A stretch of DNA of 64,000 nucleotides. It comes from Mobula hypostoma. Lineage: Eukaryota. Under the pieces are notes generated by a model. It was given only the letters and a program-made list of their open reading frames with translations, was not told the DNA's origin and did no database searches. The stretch is taken from positions 106,332,001 to 106,396,000 of the forward strand of contig NC_086097.1 in assembly GCF_963921235.1 (NCBI RefSeq), read 5' to 3'. A program made the translations under genes and the position numbers. The stretch's first letter is position 1, and the number at the start of each line of letters is the position of its first letter. Below, piece after piece: positions 1 to 48,532 of the stretch.

Positions 1-455
1 GATAAGCTTCGAAAGCATGAGCCTTAACATAAGTATTAAATAAAACTGCACGGAAGCCAAGAACACACAGAATAGTCACAGTACCCCCAATCCACCCTAC
101 AATTCTTCTAGCAACCAACACACAAGCACTGAAATCTACCAGGAAGTTTACTTTTAAACTTCTCTGAAGGATAAAATAAAACACAATAGGCTTTCGGTAA
201 TGTATTGTATTTGTTTTTATATATAAAATTATTTTTAGATGTATCTGCCGTGCAGGATGCACTAATACCATAATTTTAGCCAATCTGGCTCTGTACAAAT
301 TTGTATGACTCCTGTCTGTACATTGTCATTTATGATGAATCCACTAAAATAGTTGGTTTGATCACAGTAAAAAAAAAATCATTTTTAAAATATAATGCAT
401 CGTTTAACAGGAACAGACTTCGTTTTAAAAGATGCTTTACCCTATTACCTTCTAG

Positions 456-519
456 GTGTTTGCATACACATTAGACCCGCATTAAAGCCAAACTGAAACT
501 ATGTGGCAGGAAACCCAAG
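456..519 (+). other. Candidate host exon (5'UTR/first coding or non-coding)
   Basis: Pyrimidine tract ending ttctAG before 456 and AAG|GTAAGT donor after 519. All three frames carry stops before the ATG at 501 (MWQETQ), so it is not an internal coding exon. Confidence 0.3.
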
Positions 520-3500
520 GTAAGTTCACCTATGATGTCTCTCGTGATAAACTTTTTGAGATCCTGTATCATGCTGCAGATGCAAAGCAAATGATTTCAA
601 ATCAATGTGCTGTGAACAGTATACTTTGTCCCCATTACACTGTGCTTGAGATTATCTGCGGTCTGATGCTATACATTTCATACAAGTTACCTTGATCAGC
701 AATATTTTGTTACTGTGCTGATGACACTAAGTAGCAAAAAATATCATCAAAGTTACTGGACGAAGGATCAAGTGCACCACTAGTGCAGAAAATTGTAAGA
801 ATTAATTCCTCATATACATGCTTTCCCTGCAGACTTAATCATAGCCAGCAATGAAATAATACAGCAATTTATGTCATGCTCTAAGCTGTCCCTTAGCAAC
901 ACTTAAAGTGGCCTGAGGATGTGATGCATAGTCGGTTCACCTCCACGAAATGAAGAGCCAAATGAATTAACAGTTTCTAATTTCTCCTTGAAAAGTTCAT
1001 TTCACAACAAATGTTTTATATTTACAGCCTTGAAATTTAAATGTAGAAGAAAGATGAAACAAAGATCTGTCAGGGTACACTTTGATGCTGTATCAGGTGA
1101 ATAGAAAGATTATGGCCTCATGGAATAAATAGAGCAAAAGAAACAGGTGCTCTTATTGCAGGTGACTAATGACATAGAGTGCAAAAACAAAGAAATCAAC
1201 CTCGATTAAACAATGATTTACCTAATACTGGAAAACTGTTTCCAGTTCTGGTCATTGCATTCTTGGAAGGAGCTGAAAACATTATTTACGCGAATGATCC
1301 CAGGAATGAAGGATTTCAGTTGCACAGACTGTTGAAGGTGCAGGTGTTGACTTTAGAAGGTTGAGAGGAGACTGAATGAAAGCATTCTTGAATTTACTGC
1401 CTGAAAGCATGAACAAGGGAAGTTCCAGTCTGACTTTTATAAATTAATCAGATTAAAGAAAGCCACAATAAAGATGTAGGTTTATTGAAAAAGAACCAGG
1501 GTACAGAAATTGATGGCACTGTTGTCTTGATGGGCTACCATCAATATTTTACAATGTTTGGACCAATATTACACACTAAGGCAGCCTTTTTTGATGAGGA
1601 AGTCTATTGAAGTAAATGATGTGTGTGCTAACCAGCTAGGCTGTGGGCAGCAATGAGTCATTTTATAATGCACAAATGAGGTTTGAAAAAGAGCTAACAT
1701 TTTATGTTTATGGCTCTCCCAATTGCTCATTTGGGTAAGGCAGCGATTAGCAGAAACATAAAAACCACAAAGATTGCAGGTTTGATCCCATATCTATGAT
1801 GAATTAGATATTGGATTAATGTCAGAGCAGGAGACAGTAATGGCCCCAAGGGCTACTTCCTTCATTGTGTGCACAGAGAAACATTAACTAGACCTTAGTT
1901 GCTGCCAGGAAAAAGTGAGCTTTTTAGAAAAGTGTCCTTATCTCATTGTATGTCCAGTATAGGAATAGATAAAACTACAATTAAGTTCTAAAAACAATAT
2001 TTCTGATACAACTATTTGACATATTCTGTCTGTGTGAGACACTTTAACTGCCTTTATCCTCAATGCAAACTATGGGACAGTTAAATTATAGCAAGAACAT
2101 ATTACACTTAGTTGAGTAGAAATGAATTGTTCTAGTTCATCCTTTTGAACAATTTAATTTCTGTACATATAGACAGAAGTAACAGAACCCAACACAATAT
2201 AGATACAAATGGCAGCATCTAGAAGGTCAAACATCCATTGTAGAGTTCATTTTTACTCAGAGACTTTGGCTATTTGAGATTTCTGGCATAAACACAAATC
2301 ACATCTTTTGGACAATTAATCATTTCTGAGAAAACTTTGATTAAAAATTGTATAAAAATTTATCTCACATTCATAGATCAAACTGAAGCCTTTGATAGAC
2401 CCTTCAATGCTCTGAAGTCACTGCTCTGGCAACTCCTCAAGTCACTCCTCAAGATACAGTATTACCTTGTTATATTCACAATTATTGTATAGTTTAAAAT
2501 TTTTAAATCATTTTAATATAGAGATGCACCATCAACATTTAATGGATAGTTAGAAGAATACATATGTGCCTACAAGTCCAAAGAAATAAAGCTTTATATC
2601 AGTTTGATTATTTCAACCAAGTAGTAAACAGAGGAAAACAAACTAGCAGATGTCTGTTCTATTTATTGCATATTTGGGTTGGTATTTCGTGCACGATGTA
2701 TTCACAGTACAGTAAATACTGCAATTAGAACATCACACACTAAAATAAATTGAATTCTATGAGTTTTATCCTCTTTTTAAAATGCCTGCAACAATAGTTC
2801 TGGAAATAAAAGTTGCACACCCTGTTAAAACAATTTATTCAACTGCAAACAATTGAAAAAAAACAGGCTCAGTCTCAAGCTTCAACAACTTTGCTTGACC
2901 TTGCACAGTCAAACACTAAAATTGATTTGGTTATAATAATAATAAAAGGAAGCCTGCATTATCTGTATTCTAATTCCAATTAATAAAACTGGAAGTGATG
3001 TATTATTTATGACTGGGTCCATGTCGGGTGAAATGCGATCATAATCTGCTGTGTAATTTTATTGATATACTGATGTATGACTTTAACGCAGAAAGAAGTG
3101 AAACAATATGGAGCTGCAAAATCGTCTGCATTATATGGAATATCATGGCTAATGTCTTAAAAATGTCTGTAGGTTGTACAAATTAACAAACACTGTTACA
3201 GTAGTCTAAGTTGATTGGAGAAAGGTACTGAGAATTAAAGCGTCAATAGATTGCACATCACGACCCTTCAGTGCTCTCCAGGGTTTGCCAGATTAGCGCA
3301 CTGTAAAAAAAATCTTAAGAACATGCATCATTTTCCCAGGCAAAATACAAGCATGAGTAACCTCACTTTCAGGAATTCTATTTCTCTCTTCTTTCAAACT
3401 TCACGCAAAGCCAGTGCTCCCCAATTCCTAACTGAGTCAAGAATCAATCTCTACCCTTCTTAAGCGTTTCCATATTTTTTACAATATGATACCCTATTCC

Positions 3501-3580
3501 AGAAGTAAAATGAATTTGGGGATTTGCTCATTTATTGTTTCCCTATGTTGTTAAGTTCCATACTATTTTTTTTCATTTAC

Positions 3581-3849
3581 AACACAGAATAGGTCCATCC
3601 AGCCCTTTGAATCATGCCACCCGGCATATTTAACTCTTGCCTAATTATGGGACAATTTACAATGACCAACTAACTGACTAACTAGACTGCCTTTGGACTG
3701 TGGGTGGAAACCAGAGCACCTGGAGAAAACCCACTGTAGTACAGGGAGGATATACAAACTCCTGAAAGAGGATGCCAGGATTGAACTCTGAACTCTGATG
3801 TCTTGAGCTGTTATAGCTTCGTGCTAACCAAAATGCTACGGTAGCGTCC
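3581..3849 (-). mobile_element. V-SINE/HE1-like tRNA-derived SINE
   Basis: Shares the core 'gggtttcc..gg.tgctccggtttcctccca' and 'ggtaggttaattggtcattgtaaattgtcc' with copies at 11177 and 31228. Confidence 0.75.
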
Positions 3850-3932
3850 AACTAATGAATGCATCATACTCCTTCTATCAATCCTCTTCATGACCTAAAA
3901 TTTAGCCAAAAACACACTATATCTACTAACAA

Positions 3933-4380
3933 CTCACACAAAATGCTGGAGAAACTCAGCAGGTCAGGCAACATCCATGGAAGTGAACACACAGTCAGTG
4001 TTTCAGGCCGAGATCCTTCTCCAAGACTGGAAAGGAGGGGGAAGACACCAGAATAAAATGGATGAGGGAGGAGAAGAAGGATAGCCAGAAGGTGATAGGT
4101 GAAATCAGGTGGGTGAGAAAGGTCAACGGCTGGAGATGAAGGAATCTGATAGCAACAGAGAGTGGACCATAGGAGAAAGGGAAGGAGAGGCGCCAGTTGG
4201 GTGTGATAGGCAATTGAGAAGAGGTAAGAGACCAAACAGAAGAATAGAAGAAGAGGGAGGGGGAGGAAAATTTGTTTTTACTGGAAGGAGGAATCAATAT
4301 TCACGCCATCAAGTTGGAGGGTAACCAGACGGAATATAATGTGGAGCCCCCTCCACCCTGAGGGTGGCCTCATCGTGACA
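3933..4380 (-). mobile_element. Penelope-like element 3' end/pLTR, truncated
   Basis: Same 3' sequence as the GIY-YIG-bearing copy at 26735-27560; degenerate hammerhead motif near 3993-4030. Confidence 0.75.
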
Positions 4381-4415
4381 TATCCACTGTGTACATACAT
4401 CTATTGATGCTTCTG

Positions 4416-4488
4416 GACACATCTTCAGTGATGTTCCTGGAATCATCGGGTGTTTTGGGTCTTTCAACATCATACAACCTCCTCTAGG
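4416..4488 (-). ncRNA. Candidate permuted hammerhead ribozyme, downstream copy (G12>A decayed)
   Basis: CCUAGA G GA GGUUG UA UGAUGUU GAAA GACCC AAAA CACCC GAU GA U UCCAGG AACAUCA CUGAAGA U GUGUC. Confidence 0.6.
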
Positions 4489-4536
4489 CGACCTAACCGG
4501 GGCTGATCAGACTCCAGCTTGTGTTCAGATGGCTAG

Positions 4537-7500
4537 CTACTTATGATTCCATGGCTCCCCTCTTTTGAGCCACAGCCATCTTGAGGCCCTCTCTGCCGCA
4601 TCGGTGGCACTGCGGATGGCTCTCCTCTTCCTCTCTCCCTCGATGCCCAAAATGCTGAAGGCTCTAACTAAAGAACGGGCCATGAATTCCCTACAACCAA
4701 CCTCCACTGGGAGACACCTCGCTCTCCATCCAGCCTGCTGACAGTTGCTGACCAGTCCTGCGTACTTGAAGAGCTTCCTTTCAAAGGCCTCTTCCAAGCT
4801 ATCTTCCCATGGGACTGTCAGCTCCAGCAGCACCACTTGTTTAGTAGACTCAGACACTAGGACAATGTCTGGTCGCAGGGTGGTGGCTGCGATATGGTTG
4901 GGGAACTTCAGCTGCCCTTTGAGGTCCATCAACAGCTGCCTGTCCCTTGCAGAGGTCAGAATGCCTGCAGATGTTCTTTTGGCAGGTATTGGCTGCTCCC
5001 CAGCTCTGACAAAGGCAATGGTCTGCTTGGAGGGTCGGGACCACTTCGCCCACTCAACACCTGCGCTGACGGCTTCAGCGATGGTCTTCAGGACCTGATC
5101 ATGCCTCCACCTGTACCGTCCCTCACCAAGTGCCCTTGCACAGCCGCTGAGGATGTGCTCCAGGGTTCCTCGCTTGGAGCACAGTGAGCACGCAGATGAC
5201 ACTGCCTTGCCCCATGTATGCAGGTTTGATGGGCTTGGAAGCACATCGTACACTGCCTGGATGAGAAATTGGATGCGGTGTGGTTCGGCTTTCCATGGAT
5301 CAGTCCTGATGAAGGGTCTCGGTCTGCAACGTCGACTGCACCTCTTCCTACAGATGCTGCCTGGCCTGCTGCGTTCACCAGCAACTTTGATGTGTGTTGC
5401 AAAGATCAGCCCAGGTCACTTTCCTCTCAACCGCATTCTCCCACCTTGTCCAAGCTCCCTGTTGCTTCATTCCCACAGCCTTGCAGGCTCTCATCTCCTC
5501 CACTACTGCTCTCACCTCCTCCTGAACTAGACGGCGCCTTTCCTTCCCTCTGTTGTCCATTTGGGGAGTTGGAAAGGATCCTAGCCCAGCTTGGCCTTGT
5601 GTGACCACTCCCACCAGCCTCCTGTCACGCAGCCTCGCCTCTGCCTCCTGAACAGCTTCCTCTGCCCTCCACTTCCTGCCAGTACTTACTTGGATTCCTG
5701 CTCCAGCCACCTTCGGGTCACTTGAGTCCCTATACTGTAGCACTTCTCTGGCTCTTGTTACCTTGAATTCTTCCTCCAAGGATTTGAAGGGCAGTTTCAG
5801 TTTGTTGTGGTGTCCATAGAGTGCGATGCTGCTCAGGCTCTTTGGCAGCCCCAGCCATCTCCTGAGGTGGTTGCTAACCCTCCTCTCTAAGGTTTCGACT
5901 GTCGAGATTGGAACTGCATAGACAAGGAGGGGCCACAGGATTCTGGGAAGAATGCCATGCTGATACGCCCAGGCTTTAAACTTCCCAGGTAGGCCAGACT
6001 TGTCCACAGATTTCAGCCAGCCATCCAACTCGGTGCAGGTTGCCTGAATGGATGTTGTGTCCCTTAAAGAGCTGTCAAAAACTTTGCCTAAGCTCTTGAC
6101 TGGCTTTTCTGTGATGGTTGGGATGGCTGTGCCTGCAATGCTGAACTGGAACTTGTTTTCCACCTTCCCTTTCCTCAGCACCATCGATCTTGATTTGGCA
6201 GGTTTGAAACGCATCTGGGCCCACTCCACCAGCTTTTCGAGCCCTTGCAGAATCCTCCGGCAGCCTGGGACTGATTCTGTGGTGACTGTGAGGTCATCCA
6301 TGAATGCCCTGATAGGTGGTTGCCGTTGAGCGGAATTCATTCTGGGCCCTCTGGACTCTGGTTCAGCAGACTTGGTGAGCATGTTCATGACTAGGGAGAA
6401 CAGTGTCACTGAGATAGTGCACCCTGTGATGATGCCGACCTCCACCTTGTGCCAGGTTGATGTAATTGCTCCTGAAGAGAGCCTCATCCTGAAGTTGCTG
6501 TAATAATCAGCGATAAGGTCTCTGATTCTGCTGGGGACGTGATATTTGGTTAGTGTGAGCTGCACCAGCTTGTGCGGAATGGAGCCATATGCATTTGCCA
6601 GGTCGAGCCACAACACTGACAGGTTGCCCTTGTTCTCTCTGGCTTCCCTGATGAGCTGCGTCACCATACCGATGTGCTCCAGACAACCCGGCATCCCTGA
6701 AATGCCACCCTTCTGGACTGATGTATCAATATAGGTGTTCTTTGTTCAGAAGGTGCACAACCGGTTGGAAACTGCACTGAAGAAGATCTTTGCCTCGACA
6801 CACAGCAGGGAGATGATGCGAAACTGATCTATCTGGGTGACATTTTCCTCCTTCGGGATCCACACCCCTTCAGCCACTCTCCACTGTTCTGGGATCTTCC
6901 CCCTTCTCCAGAAGATTCTCAGGATCTTCCACAGATGCAGCAGGAGTTTGGGGCAGTTCTTGTACACTTTGTATGAGGTGCTGCTTGGTTGTGGAGCCGA
7001 GCTTGCCCTTGCTTTGCGGACGACCTCTCTGACTTCCTTTAGCTGCAGCTCTGACATGTCGAACTGCACATCCGGTTCTGGTGGGTCTATTAGGATGTCG
7101 CACTCTCCCAACTCCTGCTCTCTTTCAGGATCATTATATATCTTCTTCAGATGTTGGTCTATGTCTTCCTGCGAACAGGCCAGTTTCCCACTGCGCTTCT
7201 CCCCCAGCAACTCCTTGGTGAACTTGAAGGGGTTGGTGATAAAGGCAGCACGTTTTCGAGCCCTTTCACGCCGCCACCTCCGATGCCACTCTGCCCGGCG
7301 GAGGACCCTGATCTTCTTTCGTAGTATGCTCATCAGCTGGGCCAAGCTAATGCGCTCCTCTTCTCCTGCCTCCTTGTATTGGGACTTCAGCACTTTCATC
7401 TCCTGCCTGATGTTGTGGATCCTCAATGCTCTTTGGTTCTTCGAGTAAGATGTTTTGGAGCCTTCCTTCTCCTCTTCTCCGAACGGTTCAGCTGCGATAC

Positions 7501-7894
7501 TAACAATAATTGTTGTCATGGCTTGCAGCTTCCTATCAACCCCTCCCTTCGTCGTTGCCTCCAGAATTTGGTTAACATCGTCATCAAACTGCTTCCACAG
7601 TGAAGTCAAGTTAGCTGCAGGTCATTTGATCCGCCTCCTGTTAGACTTCATGTTCGAGGGATTAGTTTGCAACACTTGGAGGTTCCGGGCACTATGGGGT
7701 GACTCCGGGCCTGGCCCCTCCTTCGTCTCACCAGGTTGGACACCTGCGCGTTGTGCTGCTCCTGCTCCCGCCAAACACTTCATCCTCGATTGGTGGATCT
7801 TCAAGCCACGATCGTTCTTGCAGATTTTGCCACATGCACACTGCTTCCTCATCGTCGTTTGTTCATTGACTGGGTCTGATGTCATTATGTCCAT
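4537..7894 (-). pseudogene. Disrupted single ORF (ZnF-RT-CCHC-RLE) of the HERO-like element
   Basis: ORFs 7894-7622, 7609-6746 and 6694-5375 share one frame, separated by two stops. Removing the 106-nt insertion at 5296-5401 puts 5253-4537 in the same frame (~1083 aa). Confidence 0.85.
5296..5401 (+). mobile_element. Short Penelope-like tail (minimal hammerhead plus 3' tail) inserted in the HERO-like ORF
   Basis: cagtcctgatgaagggtctcggtctgcaacgtcgactg...gtgtgttgc interrupts the codons WADL|WKAEPH. Confidence 0.85.
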
Positions 7895-8128
7895 CCGACT
7901 AGGGTGCTCATCCTCCCCCCCTCTCGGGCACCCCTAGGGGTATCTTTTCCTTAGATTCTTTGTGGCTTTTGTGGGGTCCTCCTCTCAGAGGATGCAGATT
8001 GGGTTGCCAGCCCGTTCTGCCCTTGTTGCCGTCTCTCCGGGCTGTCACAGACTCTCCAGTCGTCACCACTCTTTTCGTGGTTGTCACCCAGTCTTTCCTG
8101 GCTGTCACTGATTAACTCAGGGTGTAAG

Positions 8129-8452
8129 CTGTGTACATACATCTATTGATGCTTCTGGACGCATCTTCAGTGATGTTCCTGGAATCATCGGGTGTTTCAG
8201 GTCTTTCAACATCATACAACCTCCTCCAGGTGACCCAGTCGGGGCTGATCAGACCCCAGCTTGTGTCCAGGTGGCTAGCTACTTATGACTCCATGGCTCT
8301 CCTCTTTTGAGCCACAGCCATCTTGAGGCCCTCTCTGCCGCATCGGTGGTACTGCGGATGGCTCTCTCTCCCTCGATGCCAAAAATGCTGAAGGCTCTAA
8401 CTAAAGAACGGGCTATGAATCCCCTACAACCATCCTCCACTGGGAGACACCT
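8129..8452 (-). repeat. Direct repeat of the HERO-like 3' end placed head-to-tail at its 5' end
   Basis: Aligns by eye to 4387-4719 with scattered substitutions and a short deletion; abuts the full copy at 8128/8129 with no spacer. Confidence 0.92.
8158..8230 (-). ncRNA. Candidate non-circularly permuted hammerhead ribozyme with k-turn, upstream copy
   Basis: CCUGGA G GA GGUUG UA UGAUGUU GAAA GACCU GAAA CACCC GAU GA U UCCAGG AACAUCA CUGAAGA U GCGUC. Core CUGANGA, GAAA and UH are present with 7-bp stem I; predicted cut between 8215 and 8214. Confidence 0.7.
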
Positions 8453-9329
8453 AAATTGTTTGATAAATTTTCCTCTTGATGCATTCTGTCAAGAACTTTT
8501 GGTGGTTACTGCAATATATTTAGGGAGCTGCATTTTTAGTTAATCTTAAATTGCAATGTACACACATGCCCTGAATTCCCTTTGCTGTATCTCAAGCTCT
8601 TCCACTGCATTCCAGTGTAAAACTTGAGAGAATCAAGAGAAACTACATCAAAGGTATTTTCCAGGCAGTGCTCCAATAGAAGCCAGATAAATCTATAACT
8701 TCCATAGATTTCTAGGCCTATTTTCCACCCTGAATATTCTTCCATATCACTTCCAGGGTAGCTAAAGTGATTGACAAGCCAGTCTAAGGAGGACCAGGAA
8801 TGTTCTCCTTAGTGTCATCCACTAGATGGGCCTGCAAATGAGCCTATTCCTACAGCTCATTAAACTCCTGCAAATCTCTTGAGAATTCAAGATGCACATA
8901 AATCATCAGAAACAATCCAGCCTGAGAAAATGCATTGAGTTTTTAATTTTTTAATGAAAATTTAACTTTTGACTTATTTGACAAGAGCCACAAGCACGCC
9001 TGAGATTAGAGTTACAGCTGGTGTTGCACACATTAATGTTTTTTTTACCTCTGGTTTCCTGCCCAGAAACCAGATGTACAGATTGTCTGGCCAAATTGCA
9101 ACAGACTGCACAAAGATATAGAGTTTAGGATGCTGCTGCTTCAGGGAGTAGCAGAAAATTGATCAGGCGCTTGGAAATAGAGAGAAAGCTCTTTAGGCAG
9201 AGTAGTGATAATGACTAGTAGTGGATGTATCAGAAATACAGGAATCTTCAAAAGTATATGTACAGTTAGCTCTTTTCCCTGAAAAGGTGGGAATGCTAAT
9301 GAATGCAATTAGTATCATCAGGGTTTCGA

Positions 9330-20292: not shown

Positions 20293-20840
20293 AAACAGAA
20301 GAAAATCTCCAGATGTTTGAAATCAAGGTAACGCATACAAACTGCTGGAGGAGCTCAGCAGGCCAAGCAGCATCTGTGGAAAATAGTAAACAGTCAAGTT
20401 TTTGGGCTGAGACCCTTCATCAGGACTGGAAAGAAAGAGGGAAGAAGTCAGAATAAGAAGGCAGGGGGAGAGAAGGAAGAAGTACAAGGTGGTAAGGTGA
20501 TAGATGAAACTGGGAGAAGGAGAGAGGTGAAGTAAAGAGCTGGAGAGTCAATCGATGAAAGAGATAAAGGGCTGGAGAAGGGGGAATCTGATAGGAGATG
20601 ATAGAAGACCATGGAAGAAGGGGAATGGGGAGGAGCACCAGAGGGAGGTGATGGGCAGGTAAGGAGATAAGGTAAGGGAGGGAAACAGGAATGGGGAAAG
20701 GTGAAGGAAAGGAGTGGGGCAATTATCAGAAGTTCAATAAATCGACATTCATACCATCAGTTTGGAGGCTACCCAGATGGAATATAAGGTGTTGTTCCTC
20801 CAATTTGAGTGTGGTCTCAATGCAGCAGAAGAGGAGGCAT
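20293..20840 (-). mobile_element. Penelope-like 3' fragment with minimal hammerhead
   Basis: Reverse strand reads ccagtcctgatgaagggtctcagcccaaaaacttgactg at ~20391-20429, with the GIY-YIG C-terminal end upstream. Confidence 0.8.
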
Positions 20841-26734: not shown

Positions 26735-27670
26735 ATCTTGTCCTGGCACCTATCCCTGCTAGTAGAAGAAGTGCTACACCTGTCCATTCACCTCCTCCCT
26801 CACCACCATTCAGGATCCCAAATAGTTCTTCCAGGTGAAGCAACACTTCACCTATAGGGCTATCAGGGTCATCTACTGTATCCAGTGCTCCCACGGCAGC
26901 TTCCTCTACATCTGTGAGATTCACCATAGACTGGGGGACCACTTTATTGAGCATAAGGGTAGGCATCTTCATGCACAACAAGCAGGATTTCCCCGTAGCC
27001 AAATATTTTAATTGCACTGCCCATCCCCATTCCAACACATTGGTCCATGGCCTCCTCTAATTGCTACAATGAAGCCACTCTCAGGTTGGAGGAGCAACAC
27101 CTCAAATTCCAGCTGGGTAACCTTCAACTTCACAGCATGAACATCAATTTCTCTAACTTCCGATAATTTCTCCCCCTTCTCACTTTTTCCATTCATCTTT
27201 CTGGCTCCCCTCTTACTCCTTCTCTTCTCCTCACCTGCCCATTAACTCCCTCTTCCTTTCTCCTAACTTCCTCATATCTGGTTCCTTCTTCTTCAGCCCT
27301 TTACCTTTCCCACCTATCACTTCCCAGCTTCTCACTTTATCCACCCCCCCCACCCCCACCCACATAGCTAACTCCTCAACTGGTTTCATCCATCACTTCT
27401 AGCTTTTACTCCTCCCCCTCCCCCCATTCAACCTTCTTATTCTGGCTTATTCCCCCCTTCCTTTCCAGACGATGAAGGCTCTTGGCCCGAAACGTCGGTC
27501 TTTATTCCTCTTCATAGATGCTGCCTGACCGACTGAGTTCCTCCAGCATTTTGTGTGTGTTACTCTTGACCCAAAATGTTGAGTTACACCTTTTGCCCAC
27601 AGATGCTGAGTGCTCCACTGAGTTCTTCCAGTTTTCTGTTTTTTTCCCCAGATTTCACATCTGCAGTCTT
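26735..27670 (+). mobile_element. Penelope-like element 3' part: GIY-YIG remnant, pLTR, minimal hammerhead and duplicated tail
   Basis: Frameshifted HFT..S.VIYCIQCS...LYI.E...RLG..F.EH and ATLRLEEQHL..LG.LQ...MNI.FSNF; hammerhead-like motif at ~27466-27500. Confidence 0.85.
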
Positions 27671-32014: not shown

Positions 32015-32385
32015 AAGTACGAGGAAATCTGCAGATGCTGGAAATTCAAGCAACACACACAAAAACTGCTGGTGAACGCAGCAGGCCAGGCAGCATCTAT
32101 AGGAAGAGGTACAGTCGATGTTTTGGGCCGATACCCTTCATCAGGACTAACTGAAAGAAGAGATAGTAAGAGAATTGAAAGTGGGAGGGGGAAGGGGAGA
32201 TCCGAAATGACAGGAGAAGACAGGATGGGAAGGGATGGAGCGAAGAGTTGGAAAGTTGATTGGCAAAAGGGATACGAGGCTGGAGAAGGGAGAGGATTAT
32301 GGGACGGGAGGCCTAGTGAGAAAGAAAGTGGGGGGAGAAGCCAGGAGGATGGGCAAGGAGTTATAGTGAGAGGGACAGAGACAGA
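32015..32385 (-). mobile_element. Penelope-like pLTR with minimal hammerhead
   Basis: Reverse strand reads cagttagtcctgatgaagggtatcggcccaaaacatcgactgt. Confidence 0.85.
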
Positions 32386-40350: not shown

Positions 40351-40561
40351 CACCTGAAATTCCCACAACCTATGACCAATGTTCCCTCTAATTTTTAGTA
40401 GTCAGTGTGTGCAAAAATCTTATGTTGTGCAAATTTTTTTTCCTGTGACAAAAGTATGTGCGTATTGAATGCACACATGGGACAGTTTATGTAGGTTTAC
40501 AAAATACTTGACATAAAACTGCACAGAATAACAACAAAATAACATACATATTTAAGTCACA

Positions 40562-41045
40562 CACACAAAAAATGCTGGTGAACACAGCAGGCCAGGCAGC
40601 ATCTATAGGAAGAGGTGCAGTCGACGTTTCAGGCCGAGACCCTTCGTCAGGACTAACTGAAGGAAGAGTGAGTAAGGGATTTGAAAGTTGGAGGGGGAGG
40701 GGGAGATCCAAAATGATAGGAGAAGACAGGAGGGGGAGGGATGGAGCCAAGAGCTGGACAGGTGATAGGCAAAAGGGATACCAGAGGATCATAGGACAGG
40801 AGGCCTAGGGAGAAAGAAAGGTGGGGGGGGGGAGAGAAGCCCAGAGGATGTGCAAGGATATATATAGTGAGAGGGACAGAGGGAGAAAAAAGAGAGGAAA
40901 AAAAGGGGAAAGAAAAAAATTATAATAATAAATAAATAGATAGATAAATAAATAAGGGACGGGGTACGATGGGGAGGAGGGGCATTAATGGAAGTTAGAG
41001 AAGTCAATGTTCATGTCATCAGGTTGGGCATATTTAATTTTTTAT
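40562..41045 (-). mobile_element. Penelope-like pLTR with 15-bp flanking direct repeat
   Basis: catatttaagtcaca at 40547-40561 and 41046-41060. Confidence 0.85.
40619..40654 (-). ncRNA. Minimal type I hammerhead ribozyme (Penelope-associated), intact core
   Basis: AGUC CUGACGA A GGGUC UC GGCCU GAAAC GUC GACU. Confidence 0.75.
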
Positions 41046-48050: not shown

Positions 48051-48532
48051 TTTCGTCTGGGTAGCCTCCAACATGATGGCATGAACATTGACTTCTCTGA
48101 CTTCCGCTAATGCCCCACCTCCCCCTTGTACCCCTTCCGTTATTTATTTATATACACACATTCCTTTTCTCTCTCTGTCCCTCTCACTATACCCCTTGCC
48201 CATCCTCTGGGTTTTTTTCCCCCTCCCCCTTTTCTTTCTCCCTAGGCCGCCTGTCCCATGATCCTCTCATATCCCTTTTGCCAATTAACTGTCCAGCTCT
48301 TGGCTCCATCCCTCCCCCTCCTGTCTTCTCCCATCATTTTGGATCTCCCCCTCCCCCTCCCACTTTCAAATTTCTTACTAGCTCTTCTTTCAGTTAGTCC
48401 CGACGAAGGGTCTCCGCCCGAAACGTCGACTGTACCTCTTCCTAGAGATGTGGCCTGGCCTGCTGCGTTCACCAGCAACTTTTATGTGTGTTGCTTGAAC
48501 TTCCAGCATCTGCAGATTTCCTCGTGTTTGCG
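48051..48532 (+). mobile_element. Penelope-like pLTR inserted in CR1
   Basis: Near-identical in reverse to 40562-41045; hammerhead at ~48396-48431 with a U4>C change. Confidence 0.85.

Follow-up and report, generated by a model that had tools for sequence, protein, structure and literature searches.

Head-to-tail joints and a hammerhead-like 3′ domain in a HERO/Zebulon-type LINE of Mobula hypostoma, and their possible bearing on the template of reverse transcription

The subject of this analysis is a long interspersed nuclear element (LINE) of the HERO/Zebulon type that lies on the minus strand, between positions 4387 and 8452, of a 64,000-nucleotide (nt) stretch of Mobula hypostoma DNA (contig NC_086097.1, forward-strand positions 106,332,001 to 106,396,000), hereafter the window. 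The full-length unit is preceded, without spacer, by a partial copy of its own 3′ end, and the 3′ untranslated region (UTR) present in both copies holds what a comparison of sequences presents as a deeply conserved domain having the core of the hammerhead ribozyme in an unusual strand order. The most far-reaching reading considered here, to which we assign a probability of about one in three, is that HERO/Zebulon LINEs are autonomous elements whose RNA would be processed by the hammerhead into a circular (or dimer-linked) form and copied by rolling reverse transcription, in a cycle resembling that of retrozymes and viroids; the hammerhead would have a new topology, with CUGAnGA split from stem II, and a kissing-loop palindrome would pair two RNAs.

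The partial-tandem layout

The unit runs from 8128 to 4387 and measures 3742 nt, a foreign insert of about 90 nt included; unit coordinates are counted from 8128, the window position being 8129 minus the unit position. The upstream partial copy (8129–8452, minus strand) consists of the last 324 nt of the element, read from 8452 to 8129; it repeats the last 333 nt of the unit (unit 3410–3742) and holds the end of the open reading frame (ORF), the whole 3′ UTR and the hammerhead-like domain. The two 3′-end copies align as direct repeats in two blocks, 4387–4624 with 8129–8366 (238 nt, 94% identity) and 4631–4719 with 8364–8452 (89 nt, 96% identity), separated by a single 9-nt gap. At the head-to-tail joint (8128–8129, minus strand), where unit nt 3742 meets nt 1, the upstream copy ends at 8129 with ...tacacag and the unit begins at 8128 with cttacacc, no filler nucleotides being present. 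An earlier note on this DNA had claimed just such a spacerless 324-nt copy, and both the repeat alignment and the joint sequence bear it out. The note had also remarked on the absence of a poly(A) tail and of a target-site duplication; neither is visible at the window copy or, on visual inspection, at any of 19 further insertions whose two flanks were available. The GUA sites to which it had drawn attention are present in both 3′-end copies (g8217-t8216-a8215 and g4475-t4474-a4473), and the span from 8214 to 4473 does measure 3742 nt.

The same arrangement recurs elsewhere in the genome, as indicated by searches in which the best 40 places per query were scored. A query spanning the joint found an end-to-end match at all 40 scored places (the best 40 of 2525 candidates), and at 29 other loci obtained with it the upstream copy, whose start ranges from unit 2046 or earlier up to 3425, always abuts nt 1. 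Since a query of this kind demands an upstream copy, the search was redone with the first 400 nt of the unit alone, and 30 loci, one of them the window, were taken from the best 40 of 616 candidates. At 26 of the 29 others the full-length 5′ end is preceded by an upstream 3′-end copy, the joint being exact at 25 and affected by a small deletion in L059; the remaining three (L034, L037 and L054) begin exactly at nt 1 beside unrelated DNA. The upstream copies are 34 to more than 1500 nt long (the latter in L015 and L057), with a median near 150 nt, and their outer flanks are unrelated between loci. The two query sets together comprise 51 distinct 5′ ends, of which 49 show the exact, filler-free joint and two have unrelated flanks; in this census, made with a 25-letter pattern that L054 and L059 escaped, the joint is exact in 49 of the 49 distinct 5′ ends having an upstream copy. 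All 20 main copies tested are full length, each extending to a common 3′ end that lies about 3.65 kb beyond nt 1. It can be concluded that full-length copies routinely carry a 3′-end copy of variable length upstream of an identical joint, as the earlier note had anticipated. Among 38 3′ ends (L161–L198) sampled regardless of the following sequence, none is directly followed by a 5′ end, which indicates that 3′ ends are not insertion targets. Contigs from four other sequencing runs cover the stretch, and a few of them bridge the joint; their depth over the 3′ part exceeds that over the 5′ part by a factor of 20 to 100, which is expected if most copies are 5′-truncated.

Some further regularities were observed at the ends of the copies. 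Three independent insertions with unrelated flanks (L006, L028 and L029) have upstream copies that start no more than 7 nt apart (unit 2595–2602), and further clustering of these starts is seen at unit 2890–2919; the clusters may be pause sites of the reverse transcriptase (RT). The first base after the element in the 38 3′ flanks mentioned above is C in 20 cases, T in 12 and A in the remaining 6, never G, with CAG next in six and CTT (identical to unit nt 1–3) in two, a bias that could be due to a nick-site preference, to slippage at initiation or to a short “tail” copied past the joint. Several loci (L005, L027, L037, L048, L053, L058 and L160) are internally deleted derivatives in which about 570–690 nt of the 5′ end are followed by about 290–440 nt of the 3′ end, i.e., approximately unit 1–650 joined to 3400–3742, with several different breakpoints. 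These non-autonomous, retrozyme-like or SIDE-like offshoots form partial tandems too, and wherever the length of the upstream copy permits a judgment, this copy shows the deletion of the main one (L005, L160 and, by 5 nt only, L027); about 21 full-type copies have full-type upstream parts.

The layout extends well beyond the window family. Seventy-nine metagenome contigs encode relatives at 35–59% protein identity, and direct repeats at unit spacing (3.6–4.4 kb) were found in 15 of the 50 such contigs of at least 3.3 kb; since several of these repeats are 90–98% identical, they are not mere assembly overlaps. In each of six contigs that continue past the terminal 3′ end, the 5′ end is directly preceded by the 3′ end of the same lineage, and nt 1 is a pyrimidine in four of the six lineages thus resolved. 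The partial-tandem form is the rule for the window family and its relatives. It was also observed that many public contigs encoding relatives are about one unit long (3.6–4.1 kb), some with identical ends, like assemblies of circular or tandem molecules.

As to the identity of the element, the remains of a single ORF (4537–7933, minus strand) comprise an N-terminal Cys/His motif, an RT, a CCHC motif and a PD...E.K restriction-like endonuclease (RLE). The frame is open from unit 196 to 3592, except for two in-frame stops (7622–7624 and 6746–6748) and a frame change across the insert. The Pfam match to RVT_1 (E 2e-16, 60.8 bits against a cut-off of 29.6) identifies an RT of LINE type, the zinc-binding zf-RVT profile remaining below its cut-off (22.6 against 27.5 bits), and the C-terminal CCHC motif CSLCSKRGTLEHILSGC and the RPD...ELT...K nuclease motif were read by eye, without an RLE profile. 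Neither an APE domain nor a GIY-YIG domain is found among the Pfam matches of the protein, and these do not show the combination of telomerase-like RT and GIY-YIG typical of Penelope-like elements. The relatives of the protein are R2-like LINE proteins, so that the RLE-type LINE proposed in the earlier note finds support in the RVT_1 match, in these relatives and in the motif read by eye. The RT part has hundreds of homologues in fish, and is 69% identical over 448 aa to the Tetraodon polyprotein AAN12398/Q7T1J8, matching also the Takifugu and Tetraodon entries BAC82598/9; AAN12398 and BAC82598/9 are taken here to belong to the Zebulon/HERO clade. A fish LINE, Zebulon, was published in 2003 under a title containing the words “with tandem structure” (Bouneau et al., Genome Res 13:1686); the partial-tandem layout is therefore a known trait of the family and its novelty is less than the earlier note had assumed. 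HERO is an RLE clade with many non-site-specific members (PMC4640811). The locus is, by all appearances, one retrotransposition product of a HERO/Zebulon-type LINE with a single ORF encoding an RT and a predicted C-terminal RLE, now decayed by stops, by a frame-shifting insert and by core changes in both of its hammerhead-like domains. The best RT homologues, at 84–89% identity, include proteins of very distant teleosts (flatfish, pipefish, conger, anchovy, catfish), and a lancelet protein is 67% identical; this similarity suggests either horizontal spread or unusual conservation.

A hammerhead-like domain in the 3′ UTR

The 3′ UTRs of the relatives at 35–59% identity share a pseudoknotted domain built around the GUA site singled out in the earlier note. 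In the 5′ to 3′ direction it consists of a hairpin, a 5-nt strand (Pa5), a strand of an additional helix (S1) and a strand ending in GU and followed by one A, C or U (H); then come a strand with a short linker, a second 5-nt strand (Pa3) abutting GAAA, a strand with a UGA-bearing linker, the S1 partner and, finally, a strand abutting CUGAnGA. Three further helices correspond to those of a hammerhead: stem I joins the strand 3′ of H to the one 5′ of CUGAnGA, stem II, with G10.1–C11.1, joins Pa3 to Pa5, and stem III, with A15.1–U16.1, joins the strand 3′ of GAAA to the one 5′ of GU-H. The core set of the hammerhead is present in full, namely C3 U4 G5 A6 N7 G8 A9, G12 A13 A14, the A15.1–U16.1 pair and an H17 that is not G.

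The covariation of stems I to III and S1 was analyzed in a MAFFT alignment of 27 sequences, with 500 shuffles. In the four helices 93.2% of the cells are paired, compared with 33–47% in controls slid by one to three columns, a comparison favorable to the helices because these were defined by eye on the same sequences. Changes on both sides occur in 18 of the 20 helix pairs, and the cells with double changes number 133 as against 39.2 ± 4.9 in the shuffles, none of which (0/500) reached this value. Taken singly, stems I, II and III have 95.7%, 95.5% and 94.3% of their cells paired, respectively, and 13 of their 15 pairs change on both sides. Two features were not used for picking the rows: U16.1 is found in 27 of 27 sequences, and position 17 is occupied by A (10 sequences), U (10) or C (7), without a single G. 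G10.1–C11.1 is present in 25 of the 27. The CUGAnGA box occurs in 27 and the GAAA box in 26 of the sequences, an invariance that is partly by construction because the 25 metagenome rows of the alignment were picked by the pattern GAAA[CT]...CUGAnGA.

In the window the domain occurs twice on the minus strand. The upstream copy (8164–8260) has the hairpin with the UGAUCA loop (palindrome at 8251–8246), the 10.x strand of stem II at 8236–8232, S1 at 8230–8226 and 16.x at 8221–8216; the predicted cut falls after a8215 and is followed by 1.x (8214–8209), 11.x (8203–8199, with U at 11.1), GAA (8198–8196) and 15.x (8195–8190), then by the S1 partner (8182–8178), 2.x (8176–8171) and CUGAAGA (8170–8164). 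The terminal copy (4422–4518) lies in the 3′ UTR of the full unit (4387–4536, the 150 nt after TAA) and has the same layout shifted by 3742, with its predicted cut after a4473. Of the ribozyme candidate that the earlier note had placed at each end, the site stands in both copies, its GUA being the predicted scissile site of a conserved domain with a hammerhead core; no known ribozyme model matches it, and its strand order lies outside types I, II and III.

Indeed, the order of the strands (10.x, site block, GAAA block, 2.x–CUGAnGA) is a non-circular permutation of the hammerhead. It can be described as a hammerhead of type CSG that has been opened between A9 and 10.1 and closed by an outer helix, recognized by eye in L095, L119 and L087, and by the hairpin. 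In 42 relatives whose sequence includes the ORF end and 200 nt or more of what follows, a tally that rests partly on reading printed sequences, both core boxes are intact in 31 (25 with the strict pattern and six at shorter spacing), G12 is changed to A in two and the domain is cut by the contig end in one. Self-cleavage of the domain in its intact copies is judged somewhat more likely than not.

In 22 of 26 sequences the loop region of the hairpin just 5′ of 10.x contains a 6-nt palindrome, the expectation being about 0.2 per sequence in those 12 positions. Four versions occur, UGAUCA in 12 sequences, UGGCCA in 7, GACGUC in 2 and UGUACA in 1; the window has UGAUCA at 8246–8251 and at 4504–4509 (minus strand). 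A loop that changes and stays palindromic suggests a kissing-loop dimerization site, a prediction for which a literature search on kissing-loop dimerization found no report of LINE RNA dimerization.

Several points, besides the picking of rows and the drawing of helices by eye mentioned above, weigh against taking the domain for a working hammerhead. Both window copies carry a core change, G12 → A (4456) in the terminal copy, which is expected to kill a hammerhead, and C11.1 → U in the upstream one, so that both are dead relics, and in eight of the 42 relatives no hammerhead-core motif lies in the first 330 nt past the ORF end. No pairing above the level of shuffles is seen between 11.x and the strand that follows A9 (43.7% of the cells compared with 42.9%, the first pair being formed in 0 of 27 sequences); this strand forms no stem II, which means that the CUGAnGA block is interrupted. 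By the account of Eckert et al. (PMC10085705), no known hammerhead alignment has such an interruption, and the block was assumed never to be split from its stem II strand. The four helices together may be hard to fit into the canonical fold, or may form between two RNAs; in alignment data, pairing within one RNA would look the same as pairing between two like RNAs. Finally, Rfam scans, with E-values for window positions 3800–9000 and 7900–8300 and for L084:3350–3800 and at the gathering threshold for 20 related loci (100,929 nt), found no ribozyme family (hammerhead, hepatitis delta virus (HDV), twister or other) at any threshold; these misses can be ascribed to the unusual strand order.

Other candidates and measures can be dealt with briefly. 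The only nearby matches in the Rfam scans, weak look-alikes of C/D-box snoRNAs (SNORD78, 16 bits, E 2.8; SNORD50, 13.8 bits), are caused by the CUGA/UGAUGA boxes and were treated as chance matches. An HDV-like ribozyme at nt 1 was rejected, there being no P1 partner in the window and no consistent one in the relatives, and a regular-expression search for a canonical hammerhead across the joint yielded matches of the chance type only. The pattern GAAAC...CUGAnGA occurs twice in the window, 1.57 occurrences being expected, and the minimum-free-energy fold of the 3′ UTR (z-score −0.29) is uninformative for a pseudoknot.

The template of reverse transcription

If the upstream copy is not a separate insertion, on which template is it made? 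The exact joints, the upstream copies of the same kind as the main copy and the stops at nt 1 favor a template whose sequence already runs through the joint, as in a circle or a multimer, and to this extent they fit the proposal, made in the earlier note, of reverse transcription round a circle or from tandem read-through RNA. We infer, giving it somewhat less than an even chance, a route in which self-cleavage, circle ligation, internal initiation and strand displacement would follow one another. Transcripts through a locus consisting of a partial copy and a full unit would be cut at both hammerheads, and circularization of the resulting unit-length RNA would follow; target-primed reverse transcription, starting at the fixed internal nt 3742, would then run once round the circle. 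An RT that stopped upon meeting its own start would yield copies beginning exactly at nt 1, whereas one that displaced its start and ran on for a variable distance would leave an upstream 3′-end copy with a perfect 3742-to-1 joint, and this copy would in turn supply the upstream ribozyme for the next generation. The circle would explain the exactness of the joints, the variable extent of the upstream copies together with the stops at nt 1, the occurrence of upstream copies of the same kind, and also the internal position of the core; in fact, because the latter lies 86 nt inside the 3′ end of the element, it cannot serve to trim a linear unit and can excise a unit from a tandem.

The live rival of this route is end-to-end template jumping, in which the RT, having copied a linear unit RNA from nt 3742 to nt 1, would jump at nt 1 to the 3′ end of a second like RNA in the same particle, for instance one held by the kissing loop, and copy it for a variable distance, the domain being mainly an RT-binding fold. 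Such jumping is documented for R2 proteins, and “tandem insertion” 5′ junctions are a defined category of reads in human cells (PMC11371274). The three of 29 copies that start exactly at nt 1 are what would be expected of a real RNA end, and the loop palindrome (22 of 26 sequences, four versions) would be suited to pair two like RNAs. On the other hand, all 49 joints are exact, with nothing added or lost; in R2 work in vitro, jumps are said often to add untemplated bases. The upstream copies of the deletion derivatives share the deletion, although a common loop would let these derivatives associate with full-length RNA as well. Of the six resolved lineages, four have a pyrimidine at nt 1, which is unusual for a start by RNA polymerase II, and the conserved hammerhead core with its never-G position 17 is left without a role. 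Template jumping thus accounts for the stops at nt 1 and, with the help of the kissing loop, partly for the same-kind copies, but not easily for the exact joints or for the position of the core; it is a doubtful explanation that nonetheless deserves to be taken seriously. Plain template jumping without a ribozyme, which had been the first reading, was dropped after the 3′ UTRs of the relatives were compared.

It is less plausible still that the template is an uncut multimeric read-through RNA, transcribed from tandem master loci (partial or full dimers), on which the RT would start at the last nt 3742 and undergo ordinary 5′ truncation in the upstream unit, with neither cleavage nor a circle. 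Exact joints and same-kind upstream copies would then result from simple inheritance, and upstream copies of more than 1500 nt, as in L015 and L057, do exist; however, there would be no reason for three of 29 ends to fall at nt 1 (about 0.2 if the lengths are spread with a median close to 150 nt), the upstream parts could only shrink over generations, and the conservation of the hammerhead core would again be left without a role. Two insertions meeting by chance, or a DNA-level event of later date (duplication or unequal crossover), would agree with the difference of 6–8% and the 9-nt gap between the two 3′-end copies of the window. The earlier note had named unrelated flanks or variable junctions at other full-length copies as the sign of chance insertion; this explanation is excluded for practical purposes by the upstream copies at 26 of 29 loci, by the same joint at 49 distinct loci with unrelated flanks and in distant relatives, and by the 38 sampled 3′ ends without a following 5′ end.

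The circular route has, for its part, to be reconciled with some of the data. The upstream copies show no pile-up at 86 nt (only one of 26 lies near this length) and the contig depth shows no step at the predicted cut site, so that cut linear RNA is not a frequent template. Furthermore, an upstream copy is only slightly closer to the 3′ end of its own unit than are unrelated pairs (the mean similarity rank of the own pair is 8.1 of 21, 11 being expected), a difference too weak to separate the models.

Other features and relation to known systems

The 5′ leader (8019–8128, minus strand) begins with 8 nt followed by a hairpin (CUGA...UCAG) and UGAC, after which come arrayed hairpins of the CCAGG-AAAGA-CUGG type, each about 20 nt long. 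The same order is found in relatives (loci L081–L133, 35–59% protein identity), in which 5–8 nt, a hairpin and UGAC precede three to six tandem hairpins of about 20 nt with GAAAGA-type loops. In 21 sequences 89.5% of the leader cells are paired, with 41 double-change cells compared with 10.7 in shuffles (0/500 as high), and the G–U pairs in the hairpins indicate that these are RNA rather than DNA palindromes; the leader may serve as a promoter array or as a 5′ RNA module that binds protein.

The foreign insert of about 90 nt (approximately 5307–5396, plus strand) coincides with a gap at unit 2733–2822 in the other family copies; it is absent from all those compared and shifts the frame of the ORF here. 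Read by eye on the plus strand, it resembles a Penelope-type minimal hammerhead tail (CUGAUGA...GCAAC GUC), and this 90-nt repeat is found again in the window at 40559–40654, 48396–48494 and 32050–32148 and, more weakly, at 20343–20428 and 27471–27561.

The element resembles the Zebulon/HERO LINEs of fish in its single ORF with an RT (69% identical to that of Tetraodon AAN12398) and a putative C-terminal RLE, as well as in its non-specific insertion sites and partial tandem copies. As for the domain, the closest comparison is with the non-circularly permuted hammerheads of types SGC and CSG, which were found in metatranscriptomes, cleave in vitro at the expected site and have a short linker between stems I and II and an extra stem tying their other sides, type CSG being known from two sequences (Eckert et al. 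2023, PMC10085705). In both cases the order is site block, GAAA block, CUGAnGA; the 6–9-nt linker of the LINE domain has its counterpart in theirs and helix S1 corresponds to their tertiary stem. Unlike in these hammerheads, the 10.x strand of the LINE domain is placed 5′ of the site block instead of immediately following A9, and its CUGAnGA block is interrupted by the closing helix and hairpin; the LINE domain is located in the 3′ UTR of a eukaryotic LINE clade and is a predicted ribozyme, whereas the metatranscriptomic ones have been shown to cleave (PMC10085705).

Retrozymes, and Penelope-like elements with their pseudo-long terminal repeats (pLTRs) and minimal hammerheads, also occur as partial tandem insertions whose repeated part contains a hammerhead (PMC4209133, PMC7229834, PMC11167929); internal initiation of reverse transcription is known for one Penelope-like element, and a circular RNA and a rolling-circle route have been proposed for retrozymes (PMC4209133, PMC7229834, PMC11167929, 10.64898/2026.07.22.740005). 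The window element differs in having a LINE RT and an RLE instead of a telomerase-like RT with GIY-YIG, in the strand order and the large, highly structured periphery of its domain, and in being autonomous. A further comparison is with retroviral dimerization initiation sites, which also have a hairpin loop with a 6-nt palindrome that changes between lineages and yet remains palindromic; here, however, dimerization is a prediction, and the loop belongs to the 3′ UTR of a LINE beside a ribozyme-like core. In R2, a self-cleaving 5′ RNA of the HDV type cuts the element out of a co-transcript. No HDV-like fold was found at the 5′ end of the window element by Rfam or by the P1 search, its candidate ribozyme being hammerhead-like and located in the 3′ UTR; R2 belongs nonetheless to the same superfamily of RLE LINEs and its RT can jump templates (PMC11371274). 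In literature searches combining hammerheads with non-long-terminal-repeat elements, RLE, HERO or NeSL, the only elements reported to carry hammerheads were Penelope-like ones and retrozymes. Both the ribozyme-like domain and the palindromic loop appear to be new features, and, within the literature searched, a hammerhead-core domain has not been described for LINEs before.

How the ends of a LINE RNA are defined and how partial tandems originate has been a standing question from the first observations of such tandems, in Penelope and Zebulon elements, onward. Were an R2-superfamily LINE to have a deeply conserved hammerhead core in its 3′ UTR, ribozyme-bounded retroelements would extend from Penelope elements and retrozymes to autonomous LINEs, and the non-circular permutations of the hammerhead would gain a widespread eukaryotic example and a new strand order. 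The domain makes a circular RNA template for a coding retrotransposon concretely and cheaply testable; should cleavage fail, it would still represent a well-defined RT-binding fold, relevant to gene-insertion tools of the R2 type, while the palindromic loop suggests that LINE RNA may dimerize.

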